From contig NC_057754.1 of assembly GCF_004010195.1 (NCBI RefSeq), positions 4,403,681 through 4,467,680 on the forward strand: a stretch of 64,000 bases of DNA, read 5' to 3'. The notes below the pieces were generated by a model. The model had not been told where the DNA came from. It saw only the letters and a list, made by a program, of their open reading frames with translations, and searched no databases. Both the position numbers and the translations under genes were made by a program. This document shows, piece after piece, positions 5,778-56,065 of the stretch. Source of the DNA: Chiloscyllium plagiosum (lineage: Eukaryota). Numbering within the stretch: position 1 is the stretch's first letter; every line of letters begins with the position of its first letter.

Positions 5778-5908
5778 CATTCCTGATGAAGGGCTTTTGC
5801 CTGAAATGTCTATTTTCCTGCTCCTCGGATGCTGCCTGACCTGCTGTGTGTTTCCACCACCACACTCTTGACTCAAATTTCCAGCATCTGTAGTACGCAC
5901 TTTCGCCT
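5778..5908 (+). mobile_element. Short Penelope-derived element with hammerhead-like core, inserted in a tRNA-SINE remnant
   Basis: CCTGATGAAGGGCTTTTGCCTGAAATGTC followed by the family tail GCTGCCTGACCTGCTG...CCAGCATCTG, which is shared with the Penelope copy at 40660-40790. Confidence 0.7.
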
Positions 5909-6174
5909 ATAAACCCATGCTGTTGGCATCACTCTGCATTGCAAACTAGTGGTCCTGAGTTAACCAATCCCCGTAACTGTATTTTACAGTGAATATTTAA
6001 ATAAAATGTGAAACAAATTACAATTTTGCTTTAAATATTTGATTATCATAATATTATGTGCATGTGCGTGCACTGCAGTGCATTGATTTCAGCTAACAGA
6101 TCCTAAATTTAACTGATTTTTCTCTGGTCTACAGTGCAGCCTCTATGTTACAATTTTTGATTATTCACTCTATT

Positions 6175-6285
6175 TTTCTTATCAACCTGTTCAGAGATGT
6201 AATTACACACCTCTGGAGCAAGTGGGACTTGAACCTTGACCTCTTACTTCAGAGGTAGAGACACTACCACTGCATCACAGAGGGG
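6175..6285 (-). mobile_element. tRNA-derived SINE head
   Basis: The reverse complement has an A-box-like TGATGCAGTGG and a B-box GGTTCAAGTCC. Similar copies lie at 11590-12005 and 53005-53110. Confidence 0.6.
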
Positions 6286-7064
6286 GTCCCCCTGTTTTGG
6301 AACATAATAGCAGGAGACACTTATCCCGAAGTCCAAACTCATAGTCATAAGTGCAAGATACAATCATCAGTAATAGGAACCCAAGAGAAACCAATTCTGC
6401 TGACAGTGGTGACAAAGAGGAGTGCAATATGGCAAGTTGTTGTCAAAATGAGTAGCATACATAGATTTAAGTGTAAGTGGGCTAGGTACAACGGAAGATG
6501 GAATAGGATTTTTCTGTAAAGTTAGACACAAGCATGACAGGCTATACCTGTGGAACATAAACACCAGCATGGACACATTGAACTCAGTGGTCAGTCAGAT
6601 ACTGCCGAATTACAAAACTTTTCATTTCGACGTTCAAGCAGTGCTGTCGCCATACCCACCGGACAAAAACACAATTTATGGGACTGAATGCAAATTGGTT
6701 GCTATTTCATCCAACATTAACAACAGTGACAACACTTCAGAAGGTACTTAATTGGGTGTAAAGTGCTTTCAGTTCATGAAAAGCACTGGAAAATCCTATT
6801 TTGCTAGAACCCCGTTTTTCTATTCAGCAGGGAGTGGTACAGGAGATGGATGAGGGACTATGTGCAGGCATATCATGTCAGTAACTTAAGCAAGCCGTAG
6901 GAGGTGAGTTACAGGTCACTCAGTGAGTGCAAGGTGTGTGGTAACGCACAGAATTGCATATGTGCTGTAATCTGGAATTGGATAGTTATGGTAAAGGCTG
7001 CATTATTCACACCATCATGTGGCTGACTAGGAATCTTTCCTGCTTTCTATTCAGTTGCTCCAGC

Positions 7065-9335
7065 ACTTTCTGACTTTGATTGACTGTTGTCACTTTTGCT
7101 GAGATATGGTGAAAAATGTTGTTTTGTGTGCCTTGCAGGCAGATTGTACCATACAAAGTGCATCAGGATCACAGAACAGAGTGCAGAAAAGAGTGTTACA
7201 GCCACAGAGAAGGTGCAGAGACAGATCAACATTAACATTTGAGAGGTCAATTTAAAAGTGCGAAAATAGCAGGGAAGAAGCTGTTTTTGAATCTGTTCAT
7301 ACTTGTTTTCAAACTTTTATATTTTCTGCCCAATGTAAGAGGGTGAAAGAGAGTACAAGCGGGGTGGGAGGAGTCTTTGTTTATGCTGGTTGTTTTCCCA
7401 AGGCAGCGAGCAGTATAGATGGAGTCAATGAATGGAAGATTGGATTACATGATGGTCTGGGCTGTGTTCACAACTTTTGGTAGTTTCTTGAATCTTGAGC
7501 ACAGCAGCTGCCATGCCATGCTGTGATGCATTCGGATAGCATGTTTTCTGTGGTGCATCTATAAAATTGGTAACAGTCCTTGTTGAGATACCAAATTTCC
7601 TTCGTATCATGAGGAAGTAGCAACGCTGTTGTGCTTTCTTAATCATAATGTCGACATGGGTGGATCAGGACAGATTGCTGGTGATCATCACTCTCAGGAA
7701 CTTGATGTTGTCAACCATCTCCACCTCAACTCCGTTGATGCATACAGGGTCATGCCCTCCATTCCACCTCCTGAAGTCAATTACCAGCTCCTTTGTTTTG
7801 CTGATGTCGATGGACAGATTGTTGTTTTTACACCATGCCACTAAGTACGGAATCTCTTTCTTGTACACTGTCTCGATGTTGTTTGAGATCTGACCTACAT
7901 TGATGATGTCATCAGCAAACTTGTAAATGGAATTGGTGTGGAATTTGGCCACACAGCCATGAGTGTATAAGTAGTATAGTAGGGGGATGAGTACACAGCC
8001 TTGTGGAGCAGCAGTGTTGAGGATTATGGTTGAGGAGGGGTTGTCACCTATTCTTACTGACTGCAATCTATGGGCCAGGAAGTCAGGGATCCAGTTACTT
8101 AGCGGGGAGCAGAGATCCAAGCCTAGGAATTTGGAGAGGAGTTTGTCTGGAATTATGGTCTTGAAGGCAGAACTGCAACCAATAAAGAGAGTCCTGATGT
8201 ACATAGCCTTGTTATCCAGATGTTCCATGGACGAATGTAGGGCCAGGGAGATGGTGCCTGCTGTAGACTGGTTGGGCCGGTAAGCGAATTGCAAAGGATC
8301 ACGCCATTTTGTTAGGTTGGAGTTAATATGAGCCATGACCAACCTCTCAAAGCACTTCATAATCATGGAGGTCAGACACACCAGGCAGTTGTCACTGAGG
8401 CACACTGCATGATTTTTTTTTGATGGTGGTCTTCTTGAAACAGGTGCGGATTTCAGATTGTAGTAAGGAGGCAAAAGATGTCAGCAAATATGCCCACCAG
8501 CTGATCCATACAGAATCCAAGCCAGGGATTCCATCTGGACTAGTTCCTTTGTGGGTTCACTCTCAAGGAGGCTAATCTAATGTCTGCAGGGGTGACAGTG
8601 GATACGGTGCACCCAAAGCTGTTGGCATAGGTGACATTGTTTCACTGACCTTCTGTTCAAAGTGAGAATGTAACATATTGAGCTTGTCAGGTAGGGATGT
8701 ACTGTTGCCCATGATACCGTTCAACTTTGCTTTGTAGCCCATTATGTTGTGTAAATTTTGTCACAAATGGCAACTGCATATCTGGTTGGTCTGGGTCGCC
8801 AGCCTAGTTTGGTATATGCTTTTGGCATTTCTGATGGCCGTGCCTGGATTTCCTGTACAGGTTAGGGTAGCCCCACTTGTATGCCTCAGACCTGGAATCA
8901 GTAAAGAATAGATTTCCTGGTTCATTCATGGTTGCCAGTTGGGGAACATTCAGATTAAATTCTTCAACATGCAGTCTTCTAAGCACTCACTGATGAAGTC
9001 TGTGATGTTTGAGTTATACTCATTTAGGTTGGTTGCTGAGTTCTTTGAATCAGTCCACTGATTCTAAGTAGTCCTGTAGAATCCCTTCCATTGCCTCAGA
9101 CCAACATTGCATTTATTGCTGTTCTGGCCCTCATGTTTCAATTTCTGCTTGTAAGCTGGGAGGAGTAGAACAATGTTGTGATCTAATTTTCAAAAATGCA
9201 GACAGGGGATGGAGTGGTAGCCATCTTTGATGGTTATATAGCAACGGTCAAGGGTGTTCAGACCCGTTAATGGTATTTTAGCAGCACATTCTTGAGGTGA
9301 CCTGGTTGAAGTCATTGGCTACAATGAACAACACC
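7065..9335 (-). mobile_element. Rex1/Babar-like LINE (decayed RT ORF2 and 3' UTR)
   Basis: ORF 7665-8474 contains MKCFERLVMAHI, DPLQFAYRPNQST, APQGCVL and IYKFADD, with adjacent frameshifted segments. Confidence 0.85.
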
Positions 9336-9348
9336 TTGGAGCACTCTG

Positions 9349-9545
9349 TCGAGAGTGTGGTGCTGGAAAAGCACAGCAGGTCATGCAGGATCCAAGGAGC
9401 AGGAGAATCACCGTTTTGGGCATAAGCTCTTCATCATGAAAGATGGGCTAATGCCCGAAACGTCGATTCTCCTACGCCTCAGATGCTGCCTGACCAGCAC
9501 CACACTCTCGACTCTGATCTCCAGCATGTGCAGTCCTCACTTGCT
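9349..9545. mobile_element. Fold-back Penelope-derived mini-element with 15-bp TSD
   Basis: Inverted arms lie around GGGCATAAGCTC.../GGGCTAATGCCCGAAACGTC. It is flanked by CCTTGGAG(C/T)ACTCTG at 9334-9348 and 9546-9560. Confidence 0.75.
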
Positions 9546-10131
9546 CCTTGGAGTACTCTGCCTCAACACTGTTTGTAGTGTTGTATACTTCAAAGTGCAC
9601 TCTTCACTTCCACATGGGGTGAGATACAGATCTCAGTCAAGGTAGCAGAGGCGAACTCACGCAACAGCGCATAGGGAGAGTGCTTTACTGCAAGATATTC
9701 TAGGACCAGGGAGCAGTAGCTCACCAGAGTTGCCACATGCGAGTTGATTAGGAAGCAGTCCCCACTACCCCATGCCTTGCCTGAGGACACGGAGTGGTGC
9801 ATTCGGTGAACTGAGAAACCCTGAGTGTTTTGTCTCTCCAGCTCCTACAGCATGCCATTGGTAGGCTTAATAGAACTAAAGCTGATACTTAACTTCACAT
9901 TCCCGAATACACCTGCCTTGACACTTAGTAGGGATTACACTTTCATTTTCCTTCAAGACTATAAACTGGAAAATGAAAGTGGGACTGCTTTATCACTAAA
10001 AGTAGCAACAGGAGTTTTTGTGGCTATCTTCCCTGGATCTCTGTACGGTCACCCCCTCAGCCTCCAGAGGTTTATAAATTCGTGAGGGGCATGGACAGGG
10101 TGAAAAGCCAAGGTCTTTTTCCCAATATTTC

Positions 10132-11050: not shown

Positions 11051-11051
11051 C

Positions 11052-20888: not shown

Positions 20889-21078
20889 CCTCTTCTACAT
20901 AGTCTATGGTTGAGAGCTGCTGGATCCGATTGCACACCACGCTGTTCTGCCTCTTCAGTTTGCCGCGTTTCTCCTTTGGTCTCGGTGGCTTTGCAGCAAC
21001 GGCGTCCTGCACCGGTGACACCTCGAAGGTGTTGTTGAAGTCAATGCAGTAGTCGATCATTCCACTCATCAGCTCCGC
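20889..21078 (-). CDS. FRMD8: FRMD8 coding exon 10: AELMSGMIDYCID...KLKRQNSVVCNRIQQLSTIDYVEE(G)
   Basis: CAG acceptor, GTAGG donor, 190 nt, phase 0 to 1. Matches FRMD8. Confidence 0.95.
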
Positions 21079-33408: not shown

Positions 33409-33484
33409 CAGATAAAGCTCCCTCTACTGCTACAGCAATCCCAGCCTCAGAAATGGCATCGTCTCCACCCACACAATTTTCCTT

Positions 33485-36136: not shown

Positions 36137-38329
36137 CTGGAAAAGAAAGAAATCCAGTATCAGAAACACGCTTGCATTAAACCGAGGGTTTCAATCACTC
36201 TCTAACTACTGTAGGAAGATGTTTTGGATTCCTGACTCTCAAAGCAAATTTAAACTAACCTACTTCACTATGGCGATAAAAGTTACTATGCTGCTAACAA
36301 CTAGTTCCTATCAATTATGGTTCCCAGCAGAGTTACTGCTCCATGTCCCTTTGAACCATGTTTGATTATAAAGAACCTGATCAATTGGGTTGCAATGCTT
36401 TATTTGCATTCCAGGGAGTAAATTAAACTTCAACAGCACTAGTGTCCCTCCCTTCTTCCTGCATGGACATGAACGAGCTCCTTTGCCAACTCCTCTCTGT
36501 CATAATCAAAGCACAGGCTTGACATGCAATTTTGTAACGTTCCCAAGATATACAAGTTGTCTTAGGAGAGTGGGTTGGACAGGTTGGTCTTGTTTCCTAG
36601 GAGTGAGCAGTAGGCCATTCGAGCCTGCTCTGTTATTCAATACGATCACTGGTGATCCTCTTATCTCAACACCATAATCTCACTTTCCACTGGACTTTAA
36701 AAGAGCATGTGGTGGTTAGACTTTATTGAAATGCACAATAGTCTGAATGGTCTTGACAAGGTAGATATGGAACTCGCGTTTCTCCTTGCAGTTGAATCCA
36801 GGGCTCACTGATTTAAAATTAGAGGCTGTTCTTTCAGGATAAAGATGAAAATTTTTATTTTCCCTCTGTTTCACAGCTGTACAAACCTCAAACTGCCTCA
36901 GAAGGTAGTGGATGCAGGGTTGTTGAATATTTTTTAAGGCAGTGGTAGATAAATTCTTGTTTGGCAAGGGAATCAAAGATCAGTTGGAGAAGGAAATGCA
37001 AAATTCTGAAGAAACAGGTCTTATTGGAGGGGGGAATGGCCTACTTCTGCCCTGATGTTGAATGTCTGAGTGAGGCAGAAAGGCAGCAACAATGCACCTG
37101 AATAGGTTGGGTGGGCAGGCAGAGAGTTCCTACAGTGCAACACTTTGAAAAGACTAAATCCTAATTCTCCTGGGGCAATCAAGACAACTCTTCTGATTGC
37201 TCCATTGAATTCAGGCAAATGCAAGATGATCATGCAACACTGTTAGAAAGTGACTATGAGCTTCGACAAACATCCCTCACAGTTGGCTCTGTTTGGCAGA
37301 GAAATAGAGATCATCTCAGAATTCATCTTATCGGTGCAGAATGATTCAGACATAGTAGTTGCAACAGATCAAAGAAGTAACACAGCATGTAATGAATTTA
37401 TGAACTAGTTCAAAGTGGTAAACTTCAAGTGTTTTCTCTCAGCTAAATGGCATTCTCATTGCAGACAGTATTGGACCTTTGGGGAAAAAAAAGATCACAA
37501 ATTGTAGAGAAATAGAAAGCAGTAGAACGTAAAAGATCAGACTTGAGCAATCAAGGGAAAAAGAACACTTAAATGGGATGTGGAAACGATAAGAGCCTGT
37601 ACTGATCAAGTATCAGTAAGCCTCACCTAACCAAATTGAGATTTTGCACCAAAGAGTCATATTGGACTTGTTAACATTTTCTCTCCCCAAAGATACTGTC
37701 AGTCCTGCGGAGTTTCTTTATTATTTTTGTTATTTATAATCTTTGATATCCACAATATCATGTTTTGTTCAACTGAAGTTTCATTTCATAATTCTTTGGC
37801 TAACCAGGCACAGGATTACATTTTTGTGTTATTCCATAATTTTAAAAATCTGCATTATTCCTCCCTGCAATTCTCTTCAGCAGTTTTGAGGGATCCTGCT
37901 ACGTTGAGCTTCCAAGCCACCAAATTCTACTCCACCTTTCCACCAACCACGTCACTCGCCAAATCCACAAATAAGCAAAACCTCGAGATGCTCATGTAAT
38001 CCCAGTCATACTGGGTTCATCAGCAATTTACAAATCTCTCACTGTTAAACAAATGGCCTACTGTGATGATTAAAAGTAGTGTATAATCCCCTGGTGGTGG
38101 TTTTCATAAATCACTCATGGGTTGTGGTATTGCTGGCTAAGCCAGCATTAATCTCCCATCCTAGTACAAATAAGAGACTTGCTCAGCCATTTCAGACTGG
38201 TCATGGGATGCAAGCCATAAAAGGATGTTAGTCAACCAAGTGGTTTCATATAAAAATTCACTAGCTAGATGACGACTATAATGAATATGCATTCCTATTT
38301 AAAATTTAGATTTTCCTTTTATTTTTATT

Positions 38330-39115: not shown

Positions 39116-40659
39116 CTATCTGAATTTAAACTCCTCAGTTGCCATGATAGGTTCTGCCCTGTCTGGATCATTAATCCAGGACTCAAGGTTACCAGTCCAG
39201 CAACCAGGTATTCCTTTGCCTATGAACTTGTAGGGGGGGAAAAATCAATCTCCTGAAGAGCACACTCTCTTTAAAAACAAGTTGAGAGATAATTTTCAGG
39301 GACCGACAAGTGCACCACCTGTATGAGAACCTTAAGGTTGTGGCATAATGAATGGAAAATAAGGAAGACAAGCAAAGGAAGCGAACACCAGATATCACAG
39401 ATCATTTCCCAAAGCTGACAACATCCGATCCAAGCCAGAGGATAAGTAAAAATCTGATTAATCTTTGGGTTCTGCGACAGTACAGGAGAAAGAACAATGC
39501 CATAGTGCTTTATATCTGCCAGTCTCCTGCTTACTGTGTCCTCAATGTAGGTTAAGCAACAGGTTAAGAAAGGACGGACCTGACACCATCACATCTAGAT
39601 AATTAACTATCAGCATTCCAGGGTCTGATGCTGAGCCAAGTGGAGCTATTATGTTCGCATCACCAGGCCATTACTTATCACAGCAGAATCACAGACTCAT
39701 GCAAACTAAGCACCAAACAGATGAAGTTGCACCAATCACTGACGTTAGGATCCCTGTTGTGTCTAGCAGAATGGAGATGCAGTTGCTTAAGTGCTTCTAA
39801 TTGCCAGTATATTGAGCTCACATTATGTTTCAGGAAAGTAAAAATAAGGAATTCACTTCAACTTAAAAATAAATGCATTAACATTTTCCATGTGATATAA
39901 GGGAGCTTGCTACAAAGACAGTTAACTGTTCGCTTGAGTTTTCTTTGTCACACCTCATTAAAAGCCATAAAATGTATTGCAGACCGTCAAATCAACATTC
40001 TTCCGGGTAGGGGTGATTCAGAATGAGTTAGCCCGTGCCAATAAAACCACATAAATCCTCACAACCAGAGAGAATTGGTAGATTCATAAACTTCTGAGAA
40101 ATGGTAGATATGCAACACCTAAAGAATTGGGACACATTTGAAAAGCGAAAAGAAAAGCTGCAAATGTTAGTTATGCATGCCAATTAATATCTGAAGTAGC
40201 AAAACACTGGCCAATATTTAAGTGGGAGCTTAATCTGTTTTAACTATAAGTACTTTTTTTTTGTCTGATGCCATTCTGCACTTCCAGCTTTGTTGCAAAA
40301 GCAACAGCAAGTTTTTAGGCTAAAAGATGTGCCATCCTTCAAATGAGATGGTAAAGTATTATCTTATTTACCCTTACCACAAGGCTCAGCGCTAGTCTCA
40401 ACCCTATTCAACACACAAATCTTTTAATAACACAGCTCGCTAAAAAAACACAAAGAAGTGCAGTTCTGAAACAAATATAGAAATTGCTGGAGAAACTGAG
40501 AAGGTCTGGAAGCAACCATGGGAAGAAAGCAGAATTAACATTGAGTCTGATGACTCTTCATCAGATGATGTTCTTTTTGTAACACACCTCGCTAGTTCAT
40601 TTATGGTGATGACAACATCTGAACTACCAGTCTGAGATGTACAAGGAAACAGACCCTTT

Positions 40660-42430
40660 GAGAAAGTGAGGACTGCAGATGCTGGAGACCAGAGTTGGAA
40701 AGTGTAGTGCTGGAAAAGCACAGCAGGCCAGGCAGCATCCGAGGAGCAGGAGAATAGACATTTCGGACATGAGCACTTCTTCAGGAATGAGGCTGGTGTG
40801 CCAAGCGGGCCAAGATGATAGGCAGAAGATGAGGCACTCTTCCTCCAGGCGTCGTGTGGCCAGGGTCTGGCGATGGAGGAGGCCAAGGACCTGCATGTCC
40901 TTGGCGGAGTGGGAGGGGGAATTAAAGTGTTCAGCCACGGGGCGGTTGGGTTGGTTGGTGTGGGTGTCCCATAGGTGTTCCCTGAAATGTTCCGCAAGTA
41001 GGCAGCCTGTCTCCCCAATGTAGAGGAGACCACATCGGGGTGCAGCGGATACCGTAAATGATGTTTGTGGAGCTGCAGGTGAATTTGCGACGGATATGGA
41101 AGGATCAATTGGGGCCATGGAGGGAGGCGAGGGCGCAAGTTTTGCATTTCTTGCGGTTGAAGGGGAAGGTGCCAAGAGTGGAGGTTGGGTTGGTGGGGGG
41201 TGCGGACCTGACGAGGGAGTCACGGAGGAAGTGGCTCTCCGGAACGCTGATAGGGGTGGGGAGGGAAATATATCCCTGGTGGTGGCATCTGTTTGGAGGT
41301 GGTGGAAATGACGGCGGATGATACGCTGTATATGGAGGTTGGTGGGGTGGTAGGTGAGGACCAGTGGGGTTCTGTTCTGGTGGCGATTGGAGAGGCGGGG
41401 TTCAAGGGTGAGGGAGCGGGAAGTGGAGGAGATGTGGTGGAGAGCATCCTCGACCACGTCGGAGGGGAAATTGCGGTCTTTGAAGGAGGCCATTTGGGCT
41501 GTTCGGTAGTGGAATTGGAGCTCTTGGGAGCAGGTGTGGCAGAGGCGAAGGAATTGGGAATATGGGATGGCGTTTTTACAAGGGGCAGGGTGGAAGGAGG
41601 TGTAACCTTGGTAGCTGTGGCAGTCTGTCGGTTTGTAGTAAATGTCCGTGTTGAGTCGGTCACCCGGGATAGAAATGGAGGGGTCTAGGAAGGGGAGGGA
41701 GGAGTCTGAGACGGTCCAGATAAATTTGAGGTCGGGGTGAAGATGTTAGTAAAGTGGATAAACTGTTCAACCTCCTCGTGGGAGCATGAGGTAGCGCCAA
41801 TACAATCATCGATGTAGTGGAGGAAAAGGTAGGGGGTGGGGTCAGTGTAGCTGCTGAAGATGGGACTGTTCCACATATCCCAAGAGGCAGGCATAGCTGG
41901 GGCCCATGCAGGTGCCCATGGCTACTCCTTGGGTTTGGAGAAAGTGGGAGGATTGGAAGGAGAAGTTGTTAAGAGTGAGGACCAGGTCAGTCAGTCGAAG
42001 GAGGGTGTCAGTGGAAGGGTATTGGTTGGGTCGGCGGGAAAGAAAGAAGCGGAGAGCTTTGGGGCCTTCGTGATGGGGGATGGATGTGTATAGGGACTGG
42101 ATGTCCATGGTGAAGATAAGGCATTGGGGGCTAAGGAAGCGAAAATCATGGAGGAGGTGGAGGGCGTGGGTGGTGTCCTGAACGTAAGTGGAGAGTTCTT
42201 GGACTAAGGGGGACAGGACCGTGTCGAAGTATGCAGAGATGAGTTTGGTTGGGCAGGAGCAGACTGAGACAATGGGTCGGCCAGGGCAGTCAGGTTTGTG
42301 GATTTTGGGCAAGAAGTAGAAACGGACGGTGCGGGGTTGTGGGACTATGAGGTTGGAGGCGGTGGATGGGAGATCTCCTGAGGTGATGAGGTTATGGATG
42401 GTCTGGGAGATGATGGTTTGGTGGTGGGAT
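40660..42430 (-). mobile_element. Penelope-like retroelement remnant (RT + GIY-YIG endonuclease + terminal repeat with hammerhead-like core)
   Basis: PKIHKPDCPGRPIVS, FTMDIQSLYTSIP, QTQGVAMGTCMGPSYACL, LHYIDD and LLYIGETG...HFREH...VAEHFN...RRLEEE, all frameshifted. The 3' end reads CTGAAGAAGTGCTCATGTCCGAAATGTC. Confidence 0.92.
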
Positions 42431-42431
42431 C

Positions 42432-42630
42432 CAACTCATCCATGCTGACCAGATATTCTAAACGAATCTGGTCCCATTGGCCAGTATTTGGCCCATACCA
42501 CTAAATCCTTCCTATTCATATACCCACCCAGATGCTTTTCAAATATTGTAATTGTACCAGCTTCTACCACCACCTCTGGCAGCTTAATCCGTACACGCAC
42601 CACCTTCTGTGTGAAAAAGTTGTTCCTCAA
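42432..42630 (-). mobile_element. CR1 LINE 3' tail
   Basis: RNNFFTQKVVRVRIKLPEVVVEAGTI. Confidence 0.8.
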
Positions 42631-43560: not shown

Positions 43561-45131
43561 AGGTGCAAACAGATTTACAGATTTGCTTTTCCTAAAATAA
43601 TAAAAAACTTAAAATGGATCAATTCAGGTGGATCTCAAAGCTACCATCCCATAATCAGAAGACAATCTAGATTTCCTATGACTTAAGCTTCTACCTCAAA
43701 ACAACACTATCATTAGTGAACCTATGCAGGTTGCTTCAGTTTTTTAAAAATTCATTCATAGGGTGAGGGCGTCGCTGCCCATCACTAATTGCCCAGAGGG
43801 CAGTTAAGAGTCACCCACATTACATGTAGGCCAGACTGGGAAGGATAGCAGATTTCCCTCCCTAAAAGGACATTAGTGAACCAGATGGGTTTTTGCTCCT
43901 AACAATTGACAATGGATTCCTGGTCATCATTATTCTCAATTCCTTTTTTTGAAATTCAAATTCTGGCATTCGCCATGGGACTTTTAAACCCAGTTTACAA
44001 AACATTACCTCGGTCACTGGTTTAACCATCTAGTAATAAATATCACTAATTCATCGTTCTACAAACTAGGGGAGACAATGTTCTCTATGTTTGTTAGCTC
44101 ATTCAGCCACAAACCAACAAATCATCACATTTCATAAGTTAACCTATACTGCGTAAAGTATTTCAAAGACACAAAAGGCACAATATAACTGCAAGTTACC
44201 GTTTAAAAGATAATTTGACAGCATATTAAGTCATTCAACATGGTAGCCTAATTGGTCCCATTACCCTGCCCTTTGCACACAAGTAATGATTTTTTCCTTT
44301 CTCAAATATTTATTCACTTTTAAAAGCTAAGCATTTCTGCACCCACAGCTGTTTGTGGAAAGACATGCCATATCCAAGCAACCCCTTGTGTAAAAGAAAA
44401 ATCTCCAATTCACTGCTTTTATTTGGCTGTCTCCATTCCTGCCTCAGGAACCAGGCCGAATTGTTTTTACATGAGTAGCAAAGAGATACAGCAGATCTGA
44501 CAAAATCAGCAGCAAACACAGCATCTGACTCATGCCCTTCTTCAGAGATAAACAAATGCAATAAACAGAAAAGGGGAAGAGAGGGAAAAACGGAAATGCA
44601 GAGAAAGTGATATTGCTGAGTGATTTCACTCAACAAATAACCTGAGGCATTAAGTAAACACGAAAATTGCTGAGGTAGGAGGAGGGAGATTAGGGAAAAG
44701 GCAAGAAAGTGATAACAAATTGCAGAGATTAGGTTTCAATTCAAAACAGGCAATATAGTAGAAATGTGAAATAAACTTTTTTTTTAAAAAAGTGCTTACA
44801 ACATTTCGAATTGGATATTTATGGTCAAATAACTAATGTAAATTAAAAAATCTTTCCCTGCTTTACTTTTTGGCCATCTTCACTGCTGCCACAGGAACCT
44901 GTCAAAACAGTTTGGCCATGAAGATCAGGGAAAGGCCAAAATCAGCACAAAGAACAAAAGTACTACAAACATGAGAAATCTGAAACAAATAAAAGTGGAA
45001 AATTGGTCTTGCCTCAAAAATAAGCTTACCTTCAAAAGCAAAAGACACACAAAGAACAGGAGACAACCTGATTACCCGACCGGAATCCATTTTGGAAAAT
45101 AAATAACTACCAAAAGACTACAATTGTGAAA

Positions 45132-45300
45132 CAAAAACAGAAATTGCTGGAAAAGCTCAGCAGGTCCAGCAGCCAACGTGAAGAGAAATCAGGGTTAACG
45201 TCTAGCGGCCCTTCCTTGGAACCCATTCAGAAACATTAACTCCAATTTCTCTTCACAAATGCTGTCAGAACTGCTGAGCTTTTCCAGCAATTTGTTTTTA
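45132..45300. mobile_element. Fold-back mini-element (second hammerhead-bearing family)
   Basis: AAATTGCTGGAAAAGCTCAGCAG...CTGCTGAGCTTTTCCAGCAATTT inverted arms. Confidence 0.7.
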
Positions 45301-45697
45301 TGTCTGATTTATAGAGCACCCATAGTTCTTTCTGTTTTTATGCAGCAAATCTGAAGCTGGAATCACAGGTCAGCACTCCCCTACTATCAAAATAGGAAAA
45401 CAAACTTTGTCATGCTGTATAAATTGGTGTCCTTTCTCCAATCCCCTCACCTTTCTGTTCCTAGTTCTGCAACTTCTTGTCTCTCTCTGACAAGCTTTAG
45501 GTTCAACACTTGCAAGCAAATGAGAAACCCCATGATTCTAGATATATTTATCAGGTTGCATACAGCATTTTTAAAAAAATGGCAGGAGCAAATTACTGCA
45601 GATACTGGCCTTTTGGTACATTACATTCAGACTAGTTATCAAGCACCTACCTCCACAAGTCCCACTTTCCAGCACTTGGCCTTGTGGGTGCTATGTA

Positions 45698-46202
45698 AAA
45701 ACAATGACTGCAGATTCTGGAAACCAGATTCTGGATTAGTGGTGCTGGAAGAGCACAGCAGTTCAGACAGCATCCAAGGAGCAGTAAAATCAACGTTTCG
45801 GGCAAAAGCCCTTCATCAGGAATAAAGGCAGAGAGCCTGAAGCATGGAGAGATAAGCCAGAGGGTGGGGGTGGGGAGAAAGTAGCATAGAGTACAATAGG
45901 TGAGTGGGGGAGGGGATGAAGGTGATAGGGCAGGGGGAGGGTGGATTGGATTGGTGGAAAAGATGATAGGCGAAGATAGGCAAGTAGGACAAGTCATGGG
46001 GACAGTGCTGAGCTGGAAGTTTGGAACTAGGGTGAGGTGGGGGAAGGGGAAATGAGGAAACTGTCGAAGTGCACATTGATGCCCTGGGGTTGAAGTGTTC
46101 CGAGGCAGAAGATGAGGTGTTCTTCCTCCAGGCGTCTGGTGGTGAGGGAGTGGCGGTGAAAGAGGCCCAGGACCTCCACGTCCTCGGCAGAGTGGGAGGG
46201 GG
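45698..46202 (-). mobile_element. Penelope-like 3' fragment with intact hammerhead core
   Basis: 46080-46200 matches the GIY-YIG end of 40820-40920. The reverse complement of 45787-45824 is TATTCCTGATGAAGGGCTTTTGCCCGAAACGTTGATTT. Confidence 0.85.
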
Positions 46203-46415
46203 CTATGTCAGTTGAAGGGATTACCTAAATACAGCTTAAAGTTTGCAATGGTGTCTGCCCTTGTCACCCTTTCTGGCACTGAATTGGAAGACACACACCA
46301 CACAGTGGACGATAAACCTCTGCCTCAAAATCACCTGCACTTTCCCTTACATTTACACTCTCTGTACCAAGCGGAAAAGCTTCTTCATGTCCATGCCCCC
46401 CCCCCCAATATCATA

Positions 46416-46710
46416 ATGTGGAGGTGCTGGTGTTGGACTGGGTGGTCGAAGTTTAAAAAAAAATCACACCACCAGGTTATAGTCCAACAGGTATATTTAG
46501 AAGTACACACTTTGAGAGCGCTGCTCCATCAGGTAGCTGGTAGAATAGGATCATAGGACACAATGTATAGGACTATGATCTTTTGCCATAAATTCTATGC
46601 CTTATGATCCTATCCCATTTGCTACTTGACAGAGGAGCAGAGCTAGGAAAGCTGGTACTTCCAAATAAACCGGTTGGGCTATAACTTGTGGTGCTATGTG
46701 ATTTTTAACT
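46416..46710. mobile_element. Fold-back element of a third hammerhead-bearing family
   Basis: AAATCACACCACCAGGTTATAGTCCAACAGG... is inverted against ...CCGGTTGGGCTATAACTTGTGGTGCTATGTGATTTT. Same family as 48925-49305. Confidence 0.7.
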
Positions 46711-46919
46711 CACCATCATGAACCTCAAGGCCCAGGCCATACTGGGGGGGGCGAAAGGGGAGGAAGAAGGAAAAAAAAAGAAGAGGCCAAGAGGTTGGGT
46801 TGGGTTGGTCCTCCTAAGGGTCGACGGTCACTTTCCAACCTTACCTCACACTCACAGGTTCAAATCCAACCAGGGACTGAAAGTGCACCATTTTTCTCAA
46901 AAACAAAAGTAGACATACT

Positions 46920-47200
46920 TACGAGCGCAGACCTGGGCCGCTCGGACCCAAGGCCCCTCTTTACACGTTACCCCCGACTCCCGTCTCAGTCGACAACAAA
47001 CACCAACCAACTCTCCGGTAGGCCGGCCTCTGCGCCTGCGCAGAGACCGCGAGCGCCTCGCCGCGTCTCCCCGCGCAACGTTCGCCGGGAGTTGTAGTCT
47101 TCTGGGCGGCGTTTGCTCATTACGGCGCATGCGCCCTCAGGCAACTCCATTGACAGGCGTCACGCCCTCCCCCAGTCTCCTGCCAAATTCGCGCCTTTTT
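46920..47200 (-). promoter_or_regulatory. CpG-island promoter of FRMD8 with ZNF143/SBS-type and NRF1 motifs
   Basis: Densest CpG cluster in the window. ACTACAACTCCC on the minus strand (47087-47098), GCGCATGCGC (47125-47134) and GCGCCTGCGC (47032-47041). Confidence 0.8.
46923..47030 (-). other. FRMD8: Putative non-coding exon 1 of FRMD8 (5' end approximate)
   Basis: CpG-rich stretch ending in a strong donor CTC|GTAAGT (GT at 46922-46921). Exon 2 begins at the ATG, so an upstream exon is required. Confidence 0.65.
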
Positions 47201-47679
47201 TCACCCCCCTCAGTAACTGCCATCTGCAAAGAAAGTGCGCAAGAGGTGTCCTGGATGGAGGGACAAAGGGATTGGCTTTGCTATTCCTCACCATCGCCAT
47301 CCTTATACACACTTGGTAGGGTAGACCATGGGATGTATACAAAATATGTTAGAGACAAAAAAAAACTGCTGATGCTGGAATCCAAAGTAGACAGGCAGGA
47401 GGCTGGAAGAACACAGCAAGCCAGGCAGCAGAAACTAGACCATTCAGTCCATTGAGTGTGGTCTGCCATTTAATGAGATCATAGCTGACCTGACCATCCT
47501 TAACTCCGCTTTCCTGCTTTCCCCTCCCGCCTTGATTCCCATCAGGATGAAAAATCTCAGCCTTGAATATACTCAATGACCCAACTTTAATAGTCCCTGC
47601 AGCAACCACATCCGCTGATTATCCTCTGAGAAAATGGAAATTTCTGCTAATCTCCAACTTCAATGGGGTGAACCCTCCA

Positions 47680-47775
47680 TCTGGGGAGGGGTCATTCCAC
47701 CTGAAACGTTAACTTTAATTTCTCTGCACAGATGCTGCCAGTCCTGCTGAGCTTTTCCAGCAATTTGTATTTTTG
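47680..47775 (+). mobile_element. Short hammerhead-family element (degenerate core)
   Basis: CTGGGGAGGGGTCATTCCACCTGAAACGTTAAC followed by CACAGATGCTGCCAG...CTGCTGAGCTTTTCCAGCAATTT. Confidence 0.65.
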
Positions 47776-47780
47776 ATTCC

Positions 47781-48328
47781 TGTTAGAAACGAAAATCGCT
47801 TCTCAATAATCGCTCTAGACAAATTCAGGAAAACAAAGTTTTATTAACAAGTCAAGTCTGCAGAGTCGGGCACCCTTAAAGAAAAGGCGCGCTGAGGCTT
47901 ACAAAGTCTCCCATTATATACAGCACAAGTCCCTCCTCTCCTTGGCTCCAACAAGCCATGAGGTTCACATTCTTAAAAACATCATTATTTTTATCACAAA
48001 GTCTGCAACAAAAGGCTCCAGAGTCTCCAAAGTTTGTTTTTCTCACCCTGTAGTCTTATCAGTCAAAGACTTATTCTTCTCTGTCTGTGCTAGCAGTCTT
48101 ATCAGTCAAGGACTCATCCTTCCCTGCTGTGTTAATGGCTTCATCAATCAAGAGCCTGCTTGTTTTTACTATCGCTCACAAATTGTCAGCATTCTGCACA
48201 ATTTAAACTATTCTACTTTTGAGTATATAAAATGGTTGTTAGAAAAGAAACAAAAGTTTTGTCTTTTATTATAGATCAGTCTGTGGTCCAGGCACATCTT
48301 AAAGTTTAAACCGAAATTACCTCTCACA
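47781..48328 (-). mobile_element. Solo LTR (548 bp) with 5-bp TSD
   Basis: Ends TGTTAGA...TCTCACA, flanked by ATTCC at 47776-47780 and 48329-48333. On the minus strand TATATAAT (~47913-47920) precedes AATAAA (~47840-47845). Confidence 0.8.
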
Positions 48329-48439
48329 ATTCCTCAATCTGAGATTTTGCCCTTTTCGTCACAAGGGAAACAACCTCTCTGCATTTATTCTGTCCAGTCC
48401 TCTAAAAATCTTGTCTGTTTCAATATTCTAAACTCCACG

Positions 48440-48749
48440 GTGTAGGTTTGCTCACTGAGCTGTAGGTTTGATATCCAGACGTTCATTACCTGGCTAGGTA
48501 ACATCATCAGTGGCAACCTCCAAGTGAAGCGAAGCTGTTGTCTCCTGCTTTCTATTTATATCTTTCTCCTGGATGGGGTTCCTGGGGTTTGTGGTGATGT
48601 CATTTCCTGTTCGTTTTCTGAGGGGTTGATAGATGGTATCGAGATCTATGTGTTTGTTTATGGCGTTGTGGTTGGAGTGCCAGGCCTCTAGGAATTCTCT
48701 GGCATGCCTTTGCTTAGCCTGTCCCAGGATAGATGTGTTGTCACAGTTG
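48440..48749 (-). mobile_element. Penelope-derived fragment (same family as the 33485-34443 arms) with hammerhead-like core
   Basis: Reverse complement CCACTGATGATGTTACCTAGCCAGGTAATGAACGTCTGG at 48475-48513. Confidence 0.75.
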
Positions 48750-48924
48750 ATCTGCTATCCTTCCCAGTCTGGCCTAAATGTGACTCCAAACCCATTGTAA
48801 TGTGGGTGACTCTTAACTGCCCTCTGGCCAATTGGTGATGGGCAGCGACACCCTCGTCCTGTGAATGAATTTTTTAAAAACTGAAGCAACCTGCATAGGT
48901 TCACTAATGATAGTGTTGATTTGA

Positions 48925-49305
48925 TACATTTTTTAGATTAGAATCAGTCTAAACATTATGGCACAGACAGCAGCACACAGGGGGCTAATACCTTCAACAC
49001 ATTAGCTGGGCTGACACCAATTATTAAAGTTCACCTGAGAATGTAATTTATAAAAAATGTTTTGTGATTTACATATGAAAGAAGTGAAACTAACATGGTC
49101 ATTCTAACAGATGAGAGACTTCACAATCAAGGTATTTTTCAATGTATAATTTTAGTTACATCACACTGTAAACTTTTGCTATAAACTCTGTGTCTTACAA
49201 TTGTGTACTCCACAACCACCTGATGAAGGAGTGGTGCTTCGAAAGCTAGTGCTTCCAAATAAATCTGTTGGACTATAACCTGGTGTCATGTGACTTTTAA
49301 CTTTA
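48925..49305 (+). mobile_element. Penelope-type terminal-repeat element with intact hammerhead core
   Basis: CAC-CTGATGA-A-GGAG-TGGTG-CTTC-GAAA-GCTA-GTG at 49217-49251. Confidence 0.7.
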
Positions 49306-49330
49306 TTTTGAGCTAGCTACACTTAGAATA

Positions 49331-49603
49331 GGGGCGGCACAGTGCTCAGTGGTTAGTGCTGCTGCCTCACAGCACCAGGATCCCAGGTTCAAATCCAGCC
49401 TTGGGTGACTGTGTGGAGTTTGCACATTCTCCCTGTGTTTGCGTGGGTTTCCTCCCACAGTCACAAAGACCTGTGCAGGTCAGGTGAATTGGCCATGTTA
49501 AATTGTCCATAGTGTTAGGTGCATTGGTCTGGGCGGGTTACTCTTTGGAGGGTCGGCGTGGACTGGTTGGGCCGAAGGGCCTGTTTCCACATTGTAGGGA
49601 ATC
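49331..49603 (+). mobile_element. V-SINE (HE1-like)
   Basis: tRNA head, V-domain and CR1 tail as at 27359. Confidence 0.85.
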
Positions 49604-51562
49604 TAAAAATAAACCAGATCAGGAGCATCACCACGTGACTTGCCTTGAGCTGCTCTCAGATCAGTCGTGTGTTCTGAGGAAAGACTGCCTGCTTCTCTGT
49701 CTCCTTTTCTTTCTTGCCCCTCATTTCTCTCTCTCTTTCCATAACTTTTGGAAATGTGCTGTGTTTTAAAGCAAGGAATCTGCTGGATAATCAGAGACCC
49801 ACCAGTGAATGCCTACCCTATCTTATAATCAAAATAGTTTCCAGTGGAGGTTTAGGGATTTCTGAGACCTTTGAAGAAAGACTGACTGGACATAATGTCC
49901 ATATTAGAAAGTGCAGGAAATACTCAGCTATTTCAGTTTTTAATGCGGATTTCTAGCATCCACAGTGTTTGCCTTTATATTGGGATATTGATGTTGCTGC
50001 GTGGGAAAGCTGACTGCTAATTATACACACTTGTTTGTGGGGTGTGAGTCTGCCCTGAGGGGTGCACTAGATTGCATTCAACATATGCTAAAGTGTTATC
50101 ACCAAAACCATTTACAACAGAGCACAACCTCAGAACCAGAACTCTCAAGCAAAAAAAACACGCTGCTGTCTGCTGTCATGCCTATGTGTGCTGGGATCAT
50201 TTTCACAGCTGATCGCAAATTTTAAACACCTGCAGGTCTCACTACCTCCTGTATACAAAACCAGAAGTGATTTGATGGTTGATTAAATATGCTGCATTCC
50301 GATTAGAAATCCCCGTGGAAAATTATTTTAGTATACTGAAAACAGCAGGAATACACTTCAGCTAGCACTGTCCTTACATTGTCATAACTGAATATATTTC
50401 TGAACATAGGCTGCTTTGTTTCAATCCTAAAGACATTCTTCTATTGTTGCATTGTGAGGTAAGCCTGCTGTATGTGATATAGTTATATCTGTTAGTAGTC
50501 AGAACAAAATTTATTATTTACTTACACTGAAACAACTGCAACATTTCATTGCCTATTAGAAATTTCTATAAGGTCTGCTCAAAGTATGAGCAGGGAATTC
50601 AGCAATTGGTGATCCCGCCAGCTGCTTTCTTTCTAATGTTATAACGTATTTATTAAAGGGGGTAATTTTTAAAAAGTATTTATTACGCAACAAACAGGAC
50701 ATACTGTAATACAGAATGTTGGTACCTCTGTATTAGCTTATGTACAAGTACAGTATGGTGCAGGTAAAAGTGTAGAATTCGCTCCTTTATATGGGGCTGC
50801 GAGTCTCAGTGTCTTCTGTACCTGTGCAGCACATGGGAGCGAAAAAGGTAGAACTTGTGGTGATCTGTTACTGTACAGGTCAAGTATGCTACAGTGATAT
50901 TTGCATCTTCTTCTGTATTTGTACACTTTACTGGGTAAAACAGAATATTTCACACTCCCTCTCCCCTAGCTTGTAATTTCGCCTTGTGTACTGCCAGTAC
51001 CAGTACACATTGAACAAAAGAAAATAACTCACTCCTCTTTGGAAAAAAAAGGGCTACATGGACAGTACGGGTGAAAGGAAACCATTCTCTTCTCTAGTAT
51101 AGTATGACTTTTACATGTCCTGATGTCAGCTCATGTACATGCATACAGCAAATAAGAGGGTATGAGTTAGGAGCAGAAGTTGGTAATTTGACCACTTAGG
51201 CTTGCTCCACCTTTCAATAAGGTCATGATTGATCTGTTCATGTTTTAAACCTTTGATTCCTAGTTGATTTGCTCCATTTGCATTGTCACCTTTCCAGAGG
51301 CTTTTGTATTACGGGCCTTTGTAAAACTGGAAATCTTTGCCTGCACAGCAACTAGGGAAGGTATTAGCGGCTCTGGGACCAAACAGATGCATTGTGTCAA
51401 TTTTCACATACTAAGAGCTATTGATCAAACAATTTTGAATTAGGCAATGGGTGATCACTTCCCCCAGATTTTTGCCAATTAATTACCTATTTTGAAGTGT
51501 AGCCTCTGTTGCAGTGCAAGCAATTAAAAGACATAAGCAAACACAGCAGTACAAAAAGTTCC

Positions 51563-52279: not shown

Positions 52280-52482
52280 AAGAGTTGGAGAAACTCAATA
52301 TGTCTGGAAGCACCTACGAGGAGAGAAGCAAAGTTAACATTTTGAGTCCCTGAGTTTCAAAGAAGAGTCATTTGGACACAAAATGTTAACTCTGTTTCTC
52401 TCTCCAGAGGCGCTGCCAGACACGCTGAGCACTTCCTATTTTTATTTCAGATCTCCAGCATCTGTGATATTTTGCTTTTAAT
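52280..52482. mobile_element. Decayed fold-back hammerhead-family element
   Basis: GAGAGAAGCAAAGTTAACATTTTGAGTCC is inverted against GGACACAAAATGTTAACTCTGTTTCTCTC. Confidence 0.55.
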
Positions 52483-54041
52483 TCACTGGAAAGTTACTCC
52501 CTTGTTTTCCTCCAGCCTTTGCCAAAAGAGGGACAAAGACCGATTTGGCAGTTGAGTCATTTCCCTTTTTTTCTTCCCCTGTTGTGTAATGTATTGGAAA
52601 GTGGAGATAACTTTACTCTCTTTCACCAGAAACTATTAAAGCTGACATGGCTTGCAATTAAAATGGAAACTTCTTCAGGGGCTACCTGAATCACTGGGTT
52701 TGCAAATACAAATCCATCTTAGCACTGCTAGGGAGTATTGGAACCATCTTGAACCTGTTTGTGATCATATATGTCAACATTTACACTTCTGTTTAACAAA
52801 AGTGCTATTCAAAAATATCTTGATTGAATTGACTAAATTGATTGCATTGGAACTACCCAGACACAATGGGGCTGAGTGGAATTCCTCTGTGCTAAACCAT
52901 TCTGTTATTCTACGTCCTCACAATGTTTTGTCACAATATTCATGGAGCTGTGAACACAAAACTATACCTGGAACACTCACATCCAAGCTTCCCCATCACC
53001 CAGTTCGGTCTTGTGGCAAGGTCGGAGTGTCCCCATTTTTGGGCCAGAGAGTCTGGGTTCAAAGTCCCATCTGCTTCAAAGGTTGGCCAAATAGGTTGAG
53101 TAAAAATAATTTATTAAAGCTTCATTGTCATTTCAAGACTGCAACATCCAGGTGAAATCTCAGTTTCCTCCAGGAATCCCAGCATGTTAGCCTTCACTTT
53201 TCTGAGTTCAAGAAGGAATGAACAATTCAAGACCATGATGCAGGAAGACGAGGTTCTTAGGTGGTGCTCAGTCAAACTGTATCCGTGCTGGTGAAAGGAA
53301 AGAAAACTTGAATTTGTATAGCACCTTTGCCACCCATCAAAATATTTCATGGCCAAAGCCTTTTCATGTTATGCTGTGAACATCATTTTGGATGGGAACA
53401 GCCTCAGTTGAAGGTGCTTTGTGATGCTTTCACAGATTTGCTGGATAGGAAGATATATTTGTGTAAATCATCATCACTACAAAGGCAAATCTCACGTTAC
53501 TGGAGCTGTGAACAGGGTGAACACAGCAATGTTACACACATTGCTTCCAGCAATAGGCAAAATGAACAAGAGCAAGTGATTGAAGAGACACTCTAAGGAC
53601 ATGCTTACCACAAATATTTCTGACATTGAACAATCGGGAATATTGTGACAAAACATTGTGAGGAACCTTGACGTAGAATTACAGAATGGTTTAGCACAGA
53701 GGAATCCCACTCAGCCCCATTGTGTCTATGCTGACTCTTTGAAAGATTAATCTCACACCACTATGCTCTTAACCATAGCCCTGCAATTCAGAGGAGAATG
53801 GAGTTGAGGATTATCAAATCAGCCATGATGTCATTGAATGGCTGAGTAGACTCAATGCGCTGAATGACCTACATCATTCCCGCTGAAGAGATTATGCCCG
53901 AACCGTTGACTCTCCTGCTCCTCGGATGCTGCCTGACATGCTATGCTTTTCCAGAGCCACACTTTTCAACCACATCTTCTATTATGTTTTATAGTCTCAG
54001 TAGGTGGTCACTGAATATTTTTAAGGCTAAATTATTACTTT

Positions 54042-54263
54042 TAGGAGAAAGTGAGGACTGCAGATGCTGGAGATCAGAGCTGAAAATGTATTGCTGGAAA
54101 AGTGCAGCAGGTCAGGCAGCATCCAAGGAGCAGGAGAATCGACGTTTCGGGCATGAGCCCACACTCTCCTCATTCCTGAAGAAGGGCTCATGCCCGAAAT
54201 GTCGATTCTCCTGCTCCTTGGATGCTGCCTGACCTGCTGCGCTTTTCCAGCAACACATTTTCA
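54042..54263. mobile_element. Fold-back Penelope-derived mini-element with 16-bp TSD and hammerhead core
   Basis: Near-perfect inverted arms and a plus-strand CCTGAAGAAGGGCTCATGCCCGAAATGTCG (54175-54204). Flanked by GCTAAATT(A/C)TTACTTT at 54026-54041 and 54264-54279, within a CR1 fragment. Confidence 0.85.
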
Positions 54264-55309
54264 GCTAAATTCTTACTTTGCAAGGGAATCAGAGGAACTT
54301 GGGGACAGACGGGAATGTGGAATTTGAATGACAAACAAATCAGCCTTGACTTTATTAAGTGATGCAGCAGGCTTGAGGGGGATGATTGGCTTACTCCTGC
54401 TTCTAATCTGCATGTTTGTGGTAATTGTCAAACTGCCATTCTTCATTAGGCTGTGGTGTGTTTGGTTCTAGCATAACTGTTCCCCTGGGGATTTTCTGGA
54501 ATTGATTGTTTATTCTCACAGGACCTCTCCTTAATTTACTGTGACAAGTCCAGGCTGGCCTGACTAAAGTAAAAGCTGACTCACTTTGTCAGATCAACTG
54601 GATAATCTCACCTCCTCCTCTTCCCCAACCCAACTAATTTTCACCCCTTAAGGGCCTGCCAGTTACCAAGAACCACACCAGTGCTCCAAGGCACAGAGCA
54701 AAGTAACTCAGATGTTGGAACTTAATGAAGTGTTCTATATTGAGGTGAGATACTGCATTAGTACAGATGCCAGGTTATAAATCATTGACCTGAATGTACT
54801 CAAAAGTACCTTTTTGGTAACTGCAGAGACAGAAGTCGATGTTGCAGATATCAAAGGTACAGAGAGAGAGACCAAAATAATCAAAGTGATGAGGACTTTG
54901 AATTATAAAGTGTGATTGTGAAAATTGTCCACACTATCACTTGGAGAGAGATGGTTCTGAGGTGATATATGGGTTTGCTATTAAGGGAACTCTAAAGGAT
55001 TTGGATGTTACAGACCAGAACTTTGTTCAAAAGTGAAGAATCAGGCAATGCAGATGCCTTCAGGTGGGTAGATCTGCAGAAACACTGACCTTGATATGAA
55101 CACTCCCATGATAGTTTGCTGGGACTGACAGTGGGTGGAGCATGTTAAAGTGTTAACTTTGGGGACTACATTGCCAACCTATCTTATATATGGGGAGAGG
55201 TATGAAACTCAATTTGTGCATTTAAATCAGATTTCCACTTGCTCTGTCACAACCCGATTTAAAATTGATTACTGATGTATGGCTATCCCAGGGGTTCCCT
55301 CATGTATGA

Positions 55310-56065
55310 ATTGCAAAAGGTTGATTAGGAAAGCTAGAATTCTGTTATATGTTGTTGTGTGGAGAATTGAATACAAAAGTGGGAGAGTTATACACTTGCT
55401 ATTCCGGACATTGGTGAGACCACACCTAGAGTCCTGAGTTTAATGGTTTATAAACTAATAACAGGAATGGGGGAATTGTCTTACAAGGATAGGTTGGACA
55501 GGCTAGGCTTATACCTGGAAAAGGTGAGGATGCAGATGCTGGAGATCAGGGCCAAAAAGTGTGGCACTGGAAAAGCACAGCAGGTCAGGCAGCATCCGAG
55601 GAACAGGAAAATTGACGTTTCGGGCATAAACCCTTCCTGATGCGGGACCTGCTGTGCTTTTCCAGCGCCACACTTCTTGACTCTAGGCTTATGCCTGCTA
55701 GAGTTTAGAAGAGCCAAAGGTGATTTGATTGGAACATATAGGATACCAAGTAGACTCACAGGCTGGATGTGAAGACAATGTTTCCTTTGTGGGACAATCA
55801 CAGTTTAATGACAAGGGATTGCCCATTTAAGACAGAGTTGAGGTGAATGTTTTTCCCAGAGGATTGCAAGTGTTCAGAAGTTTCTTCTTCGAAAGGCTGT
55901 GGTAGCGGAGTCCTTGAATATTTTTAACACAGCAATAGATGGGTTCTTAATAAGCAAGAGGATGGAATGTTTTCAGGGAGTTGGGAATGTAGAGTTATCA
56001 GAGCAGCTGTGATCTTATTGAATGGTGAAAGAGCCTCAAGGGACCAAACCCCCTGCTCCTGGTTG
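55310..56065 (+). mobile_element. CR1 LINE fragment interrupted by a fold-back mini-element (55518-55682)
   Basis: CR1 motifs (LVRPHLE, SYKDRLDRLGLY). The insert is flanked by CTAGGCTTAT(A/G)CCTG at 55503-55517 and 55683-55697. Confidence 0.8.

Follow-up and report, generated by a model that had tools for sequence, protein, structure and literature searches.

Minimal type I hammerhead motifs at the ends of Penelope-like elements in a shark genomic window around FRMD8

Minimal hammerhead ribozymes (min-HHR) in the pseudo-long terminal repeats (pLTRs) of metazoan Penelope-like elements (PLEs) were described in 2014 (Cervera and De la Pena, PMC4209133), and we report here motifs of this kind in four repeat families, A to D, within a window of 64,000 nucleotides (nt) from the shark Chiloscyllium plagiosum (NC_057754.1, positions 4,403,681 to 4,467,680), which also contains the gene FRMD8. 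Minimal PLE hammerheads are reported to cleave slowly and as dimers (PMC4209133), and their role is still open (PMC8557442, PMC11167929). In endonuclease PLEs of the Neptune and Penelope/Poseidon kinds, a reverse transcriptase (RT) is followed by a GIY-YIG endonuclease, and the described insertion structure is 5' truncation, an inverted arm and a tail of 30-40 base pairs (bp) at one end; a linker of the form CX2-5CxxC is a mark of Neptune and also of Nematis (PMC8557442, PMC3846280). In the Poseidon element PAc of Anolis carolinensis (Frangieh et al. 2024, PMC11167929), reverse transcription begins at two internal positions of the RNA, which set the tail; the template is mainly uncut RNA, and the hammerhead needs the element's protein in order to cleave. 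Animal non-LTR retrozymes, short non-coding repeats akin to PLE pLTRs, likewise contain type I hammerheads (PMC7229834; bioRxiv 10.64898/2026.07.22.740005), and have been reported in one chondrichthyan (bioRxiv 10.64898/2026.07.22.740005). Further background is found in PMC6155905 and PMC2377424.

Our analysis indicates, with a probability that we put at roughly 0.85, that minimal type I hammerheads stand at the 3' ends of at least three PLE lineages, directly traceable for families A and D and likely for B and C, and that the copies in the window are likely inert leftovers of truncated insertions. The shark motifs agree with the published min-HHRs in the order of their parts, the extra nucleotide after A9, the G10.1-C11.1 pair, the palindromic 15.1-16.1 and a short helix I, as well as in the presence of several divergent families per genome, mostly as single truncated copies with some opposite-strand pairs (PMC4209133). 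Compared by eye with Fig. S3 of that paper, family A looks like the Acropora Neptune row, family C like that of Chrysemys and family D like the rows of Clonorchis. The 56 rows of that figure cover 40 species and no cartilaginous fish, and our literature search for PLE hammerheads in sharks, of incomplete coverage, found no such report, the single paper that it gave using 'shark' for a shape. A known element class is extended to sharks, together with its abundance there, which is useful for annotation and not surprising.

Hammerhead motifs of four families

Hammerhead positions are numbered throughout in the standard scheme. The four motifs named in the original prediction, which was made from the letters of the window alone, and the family A variants that it listed are all in the sequence as given. 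The motifs of the families fit the published consensus of a PLE-type minimal type I hammerhead in which helix III is palindromic; the nucleotide after A9, G10.1-C11.1 and the palindromic 15.2-16.2 are among the features that agree. A descriptor consisting of CUGANGA, 0-1 nt, helix II, GAAA, NN and UH matched the 64-kb window seven times, whereas 100 dinucleotide shuffles averaged 0.52 matches and none reached seven; with a palindromic tetramer and a helix I of at least 2 bp added, three matches remained against a shuffle mean of 0.0. The seven matches (five A, one B, one C) are repeat copies rather than seven independent events, and the count therefore overstates independence; the family D motif escapes the descriptor because one A is lost. 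The Rfam covariance models (Hammerhead_1, HH9, HH10 and others), proposed earlier as a check, gave no hammerhead match in the window at the gathering score, and none was among the 15 matches at E values up to 10.

Profile searches and alignments, compiled by hand with four weak or tail-only matches excluded (44486, 47362, 55639, 61453), yielded 27 motif-bearing arms, namely 12 A, 9 B, 3 C and 3 D. Every feature is kept in two of them, 45788-45823 on the minus strand and 49217-49251 on the plus strand, while 54172-54207 and 30156-30191 deviate in the tetramer only. Hence the earlier statement that the catalytic nucleotides are kept is right for the families and wrong for most single copies, 25 of the 27 arms having lost a feature. 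Reads were also aligned to 45600-49330 at 80% likeness, and from these alignments the best 18 of 3,931 loose ends and the best 40 of 253 substitutions were used. CUGANGA with one unpaired nucleotide is the family majority in A and occurs in the C copy, the D copy at 48510, the B copy at 30489 and the B loose ends, and is lost in many single copies. Helix II is at least 4 bp long and closed by G10.1-C11.1: in A 91.7% of cells are paired, with G-C in 11 of 12 arms, in B 81.8% are paired, and in C and D the same arrangement is seen by inspection. The GAAA box is present in A, B and C, and the A missing from family D is found in other D copies. The palindromic 15.1-16.1 tetramer is ACGU in 7 of the 12 A arms, the other five being altered, and AGCU in C; the NUH sites across families are GUC, GUU or CUA. 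Helix I is short, comprising 2 bp plus a mismatch in A, which is at the short end of the range in PMC4209133, 3 bp in C and D, and 4 bp in B, as read from other aligned copies whose loose ends at the B start give an intact core and the 5' strand of this helix.

That the helices differ yet stay paired, as originally claimed, is borne out between families, whereas within A or B covariation does not rise above shuffles in these few copies. Among the 12 A arms no pair has a double-sided change, and changes at pairs only weaken them; the few B copies have three double-change pairs against a shuffled mean of 1.8, a value reached in 116 of 500 shuffles; and C and D show one swapped helix I pair each, among three copies. 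In the non-CpG core of the 12 A arms 5 of 93 cells differ from the majority, compared with 72 of 648 in the next 55 nt (p = 0.10), and conservation of the A core does not significantly exceed that of the tail. Structure is conserved between families, and single copies look as if they decay freely, at the low power that these numbers allow.

Some other candidates were rejected. A CUGACGA hairpin at 41208, antisense to a PLE open reading frame (ORF), is without GAAA and NUH, and a minus-strand candidate at 14011, from a relaxed scan run without shuffle control, shows a mismatch in the core and lacks a palindrome. When other contigs were scanned by pattern, viral ones gave one match for A/B and two for C, and metagenome ones gave 22; BLAST found no similarity to the window at any of these 25 loci, and they were treated as chance.

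Coding sequence and transcript ends beside the motifs

Families A and B are represented in the window by the following features.

40655-42435, minus: broken, 5'-truncated Neptune-type PLE with RT, remnant of the cysteine linker, GIY-YIG endonuclease, A motif and tail (from RVT_1, tblastn and translation)
40753-40788, minus: damaged family A motif inside this element
45697-46201, minus: 5'-truncated family A element with endonuclease C-terminus, about 250 nt of 3' untranslated region (UTR), motif, tail and 7-bp target duplication
45788-45823, minus: intact A minimal hammerhead with helix I of 2 bp, helix II of 4 bp, ACGU and a GUU site, sense in the putative first FRMD8 intron
5773-5910, plus: solo A copy, closing pair of helix I broken
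9334-9553, both strands: inverted A pair with a one-sided tail and an 8-bp target duplication, each motif broken or truncated
30060-30191, minus: solo A copy with intact core, non-palindromic tetramer ACAU, sense in an FRMD8 intron
33553-33749, both strands: inverted A pair, arms joined at the helix II hairpin, inserted within the core (CUGAUGA box) of a D motif
53873-53970, plus: solo A copy, broken core
54041-54266, both strands: inverted A pair with target duplication; in the plus arm, 54172-54207, the core is intact and the tetramer contains a wobble
55521-55686, both strands: inverted A pair, 10-bp target duplication, truncated core
30387-30575, both strands: inverted B pair; the core is present in the minus arm, 30455-30493, and helix I there is broken
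37640-37715, plus: decayed B copy
40469-40564, minus: decayed B copy, GAAA box damaged
45128-45310, both strands: inverted B pair, decayed
47680-47783, plus: B copy with A6 mutated; other copies aligned here have an intact core
52284-52454, both strands: inverted B pair, decayed

The ORF at 40655-42435 matches RVT_1 with an E value of 2.4e-5, which is weaker than the Pfam cut-off; in tblastn it aligns at 40% over residues 248-790 of an 803-residue PLE-type protein with RT and endonuclease, and it gives a 70% match to a Chiloscyllium protein. Its GIY-YIG endonuclease lies C-terminal to the RT and is preceded by a linker of the CX4CXXC kind, which is intact in the relatives P0003 and P0007 and has its first cysteine mutated in the window copy. 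Judged from its sequence, then, family A terminates an RT/GIY-YIG ORF of Neptune type, the clade being called from linker motifs rather than from a tree. The families had been taken for otherwise unrelated; A and B share a downstream segment, however, and cross-match by both BLAST and profile search. Because B carries A's downstream segment the two form one lineage, and B is likely of PLE origin by its homology to A through the shared tail.

In the B tail (47711-47735, plus strand, and other B copies) a branch-like UUAAC, a pyrimidine tract, CAG and then ATG follow just past the cleavage site; this tail resembles a 3' splice site, and an intron in the element's 5' UTR may therefore contain the B motif. 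Another A/B-like subfamily is represented at 47362-47445 (minus strand) by its tail, with truncation after the motif, and loose ends at 47430 give its GAAACGUU part in other copies.

Family D is found at two places.

48430-48760, minus: 5'-truncated Poseidon-type PLE whose endonuclease C-terminus reads into the D motif 48475-48513 (one A lost), with the stop codon in loop II
33482-34404, both strands: inverted D pair with remnants of the endonuclease; the A insertion splits the minus motif, and the plus motif is broken

The D endonuclease remnant matches the C-terminal end of RT-bearing proteins, and D-type relatives have no cysteine linker, as in Penelope/Poseidon. The lost A, at 48481, is present in the window copy 33518-33557, in 29 of 59 reads of run X21 and in 49,592 of a depth of 129,510 in the DNA run X1. 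Family D, read in the same way as A, terminates a Poseidon-type ORF, a clade assignment that again comes from linker motifs and not from a tree. The presence of the cysteine linker in the A-linked ORF and its relatives and its absence from D-type relatives match the difference between Neptune and Penelope/Poseidon (PMC8557442, PMC3846280), with which the shark elements share RT followed by GIY-YIG, 5' truncation, an inverted arm and a tail of 30-40 bp. Unlike the PLEs of these reports, the window holds no intact or tandem full-length copy. The hammerhead at the junction of pLTR and ORF, the optional tail and, probably, the uncut RNA template are shared with PAc, which is of the same clade type as D; D is distinguished by the stop codon of its upstream ORF in loop II, and PAc was assayed whereas shark D is read from sequence alone (PMC11167929). 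D endonuclease ends also occur in the predicted shark host proteins P0018, P0019, P0021-P0024 and P0027 (named CUE domain protein 2, WBP2-like, MAP3K7 and others), which suggests either exonisation or read-through in the annotation.

Family C comprises an inverted pair and one copy with an intact motif.

46405-46718, both strands: inverted C pair, both motifs broken, tail of about 35 nt on the left arm only
48925-49303, plus: C copy in which about 290 nt of non-coding repeat precede an intact motif and a poly(A) signal
49217-49251, plus: intact C minimal hammerhead with helix I of 3 bp, AGCU and a CUA site, predicted cut after 49248
49258-49290, plus: AAUAAA (49258-49263), family poly(A) addition sites at 49275 and 49278, and a GU-rich stretch behind

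Its inverted pair, its tail structure and its likeness to the published turtle motif make C likely PLE-derived. AAUAAA begins 10 nt past the predicted cut in two of the three C copies, the hexamer of the third being mutated. In the raw RNA run X21, A-runs terminate 327 reads at 49275 and 697 at 49278, 12-15 nt past the hexamer; reads over family C are strand-biased (822 versus 188) and their depth extends upstream across the cut site. These reads come nearly all from other copies (182 of 7,364 at a match of at least 99%) and from one single-cell oligo-dT run, to which A-tailed genomic copies could contribute and in which cut fragments are invisible. Hexamer, used ends and GU-rich stretch appear to make up a complete poly(A) site directly after the family C ribozyme motif. 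Since the predicted cut sits upstream of this site, cleavage would remove the RNA's tail.

By eye, AAUAAA also stands just after helix I in 9 of the 56 rows of Fig. S3 in PMC4209133, among AU-rich flanks and with no control. We therefore raise, as a speculation that we think improbable though worth stating, that in C and some animal PLEs the hammerhead is a dimer- or protein-gated switch which cuts 10 nt before AAUAAA and so strips the retroelement's poly(A) tail. If this were true, abundant dispersed C copies would also supply shark genes with ready-made, removable poly(A) sites. In our literature search on coupling between hammerheads and poly(A) sites, the paper examined for this point concerns Clec2 (PMC6765202), and as the coverage of this search is incomplete we do not claim novelty for the C layout. 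The Clec2 3'-UTR hammerhead likewise has its cleavage site upstream of the poly(A) signal, such that the cut removes the tail; it is, however, a discontinuous ribozyme of a host gene with a tested effect, whereas in family C cleavage is predicted for a retroelement motif. With the C cleavage site right before a used poly(A) site, tail loss would be a simple cellular readout of cleavage.

Copy structure, abundance and the fate of the copies

Motif-bearing units in the window are solo copies and head-to-head pairs, mostly 5'-truncated PLE ends, with a tail of about 35-40 nt on one arm only in all four A pairs and in the C pair, and with target duplications of 7-10 bp around at least three units. 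None of the seven tandem rows in the window covers them, in contrast to retrozymes, which are head-to-tail arrays with a motif per unit (PMC7229834). Placed by hand, ten of the 12 A arms have their start within an interval reaching from about 16 nt before C3 to 9 nt beyond it, and no arm starts at the cleavage site. A binomial for this clustering under uniform truncation was set aside, as its interval had been picked with the data in view and truncation does not occur uniformly. Similarly, loose ends of other copies accumulate at 45823, 4 nt before C3 (agreement 0.33-0.44), an accumulation to which upstream subfamily differences could add. The short A copies extend across the cleavage site and so probably derive from uncut RNA, an observation that makes the role of the PLE hammerhead more testable. 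The depth of the DNA run X1 is 2-7 in unique bins and reaches 2.5 million in A, 0.3 million in B, 1.1 million in C and 0.27 million in D. The families are clearly very abundant genome-wide, as the expectation of several dense families had it, and the depth, which is no copy number, suggests far more copies than the thousands of PMC4209133.

FRMD8 provides the host context for more than half of the arms.

15836-36136, minus: FRMD8, ten coding exons
46922-47100, minus: putative non-coding first exon of FRMD8

The exon at 20890-21078 is 100% identical to C. plagiosum FRMD8. At 46922-47100 the observed/expected CpG ratio is 1.18 against 0.27 and a GTAAGT donor is present, the FRMD8 ATG directly follows a splice acceptor, and the presumed RNA run X15 covers approximately this CpG island and not the neighbouring unique bins; we infer a non-coding first exon from these observations, with no spliced read seen, exon 2 being outside the stretch covered by the read alignment. 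Copies do lie in sense orientation in FRMD8 introns, as first proposed: the gene is on the minus strand, as are 45788-45823 in the putative first intron and 30060-30191. In total 15 of the 27 arms lie within FRMD8, nine sense and six antisense, and sense copies are not depleted. With no intact same-strand partner in FRMD8, where the other sense arms are damaged, and no sense depletion, 45788-45823 is likely inert. At 30156-30493 (minus strand), 302 nt separate a B motif with AUGU from an A motif with ACAU, both on the sense strand of FRMD8; the two decayed tetramers happen to complement each other, but the joint helix I of such a combination would be weak.

Taken together, the missing feature in 25 of 27 arms and the lack of sense depletion in FRMD8 count for inert leftovers of truncated PLE insertions. 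Several observations weigh on the other side. The tight clustering of 5' ends, and a depth over motif and tail that is 2.5-4-fold above that upstream, would also fit short units spreading on their own; no ORF adjoins B or C in the window, and the turtle motif to which C is likened is itself not tied to an ORF; and the mismatch rate of the A core is half that of the tail, 12 copies giving little power. The original prediction spoke of ribozyme-bearing non-autonomous elements. On such an account the short copies would be true SINE- or retrozyme-like families (short interspersed nuclear elements or retrozymes) of about 140-nt RNAs consisting of the pLTR only, transcribed and mobilised in trans by PLE enzymes. 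The narrow 5' boundary, its recurrence at 45823 together with the raised depth genome-wide, and the ORF-less B and C are what such families would predict, and non-autonomous PLE derivatives are already described in the literature available. Nevertheless, ORF remnants are continuous with the motif in 2 of 12 A arms and in all three D arms, the motif-bearing units are not in tandem arrays, and inverted pairs with a one-sided tail are an ordinary PLE insertion product in the published descriptions. We regard a separate class as unlikely, and the short copies as standard truncated PLE insertions, A and D being continuous with PLE coding sequence.

It is far less probable still that the motif has lost its ribozyme function in active elements too and persists as a context for protein binding, splicing or a start codon. 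The A helix I of merely 2 bp plus a mismatch could be taken in this sense, as could the polyadenylated C-family RNA, which crosses the site uncut with no accumulation of read ends there or at any other cleavage site, and the anole element, for which cleavage is dispensable for insertion in vitro and RNA sequencing shows no ends at the site (PMC11167929). Yet an exact core, G10.1-C11.1 and the palindrome recur in three lineages with different helices, the anole motif cleaves with protein and shows C3-G8 rescue (PMC11167929), and the RNA library used here is unable to show cut ends. Least probable of all is that the host took over some copies, for example 45788-45823, as intronic ribozymes that cut FRMD8 pre-mRNA. 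This copy is intact and sense in the putative first intron, and amniote intronic hammerheads are a published precedent for host-adopted ribozymes. On its own, however, it is unable to form helix III, and the remaining sense arms in FRMD8 are damaged; its hammerhead dimer fold, at -12.7 kcal/mol, is about 9 kcal/mol above the dimer optimum of -21.5 kcal/mol; its GUU site arose through CpG-type decay; the copies in FRMD8 show no orientation bias; and the amniote hammerhead families have no Rfam match in the window. Folding of monomer and dimer does not favour the hammerhead, which is weak evidence because core stacking is not modelled.

Under the preferred reading of PLE ends left behind by truncated insertion, a life cycle can be proposed by extension from the anole element (PMC11167929). 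RT of the shark element would begin within its own RNA at two sites, some 70-110 nt beyond the motif, giving the optional tail, and would often halt near the motif's 5' edge or fold back there. Uncut RNA would be copied, such that short copies contain the whole motif, and short complementary DNAs reaching from the tail back to the 5' edge of the motif, sometimes folded back, would then be inserted. In an active tandem element the ribozyme would cleave at a slow rate, requiring either dimerisation or the element's protein, and process read-through RNA; in family C the cut would additionally remove the poly(A) tail. Single copies in host introns would likely be without cleavage, since a lone copy cannot form helix III. 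Hammerhead cleavage in the copies described here is predicted from the motif.

Other repeats in the window

The window also contains repeats of other kinds. A moderately repeated stretch resembling a long terminal repeat, with close relatives and strand-biased RNA reads, lies at 47818-48330. A degenerate 69-bp tandem array of about seven units occupies 889-1496. Finally, an unrelated RT fragment of a long interspersed nuclear element (LINE; RVT_1, E value 4.9e-18), other LINE-like ORF pieces and tRNA-like SINE copies are found at 7665-8480 (minus), 59691-60519 (minus) and 49330-49617 (plus).

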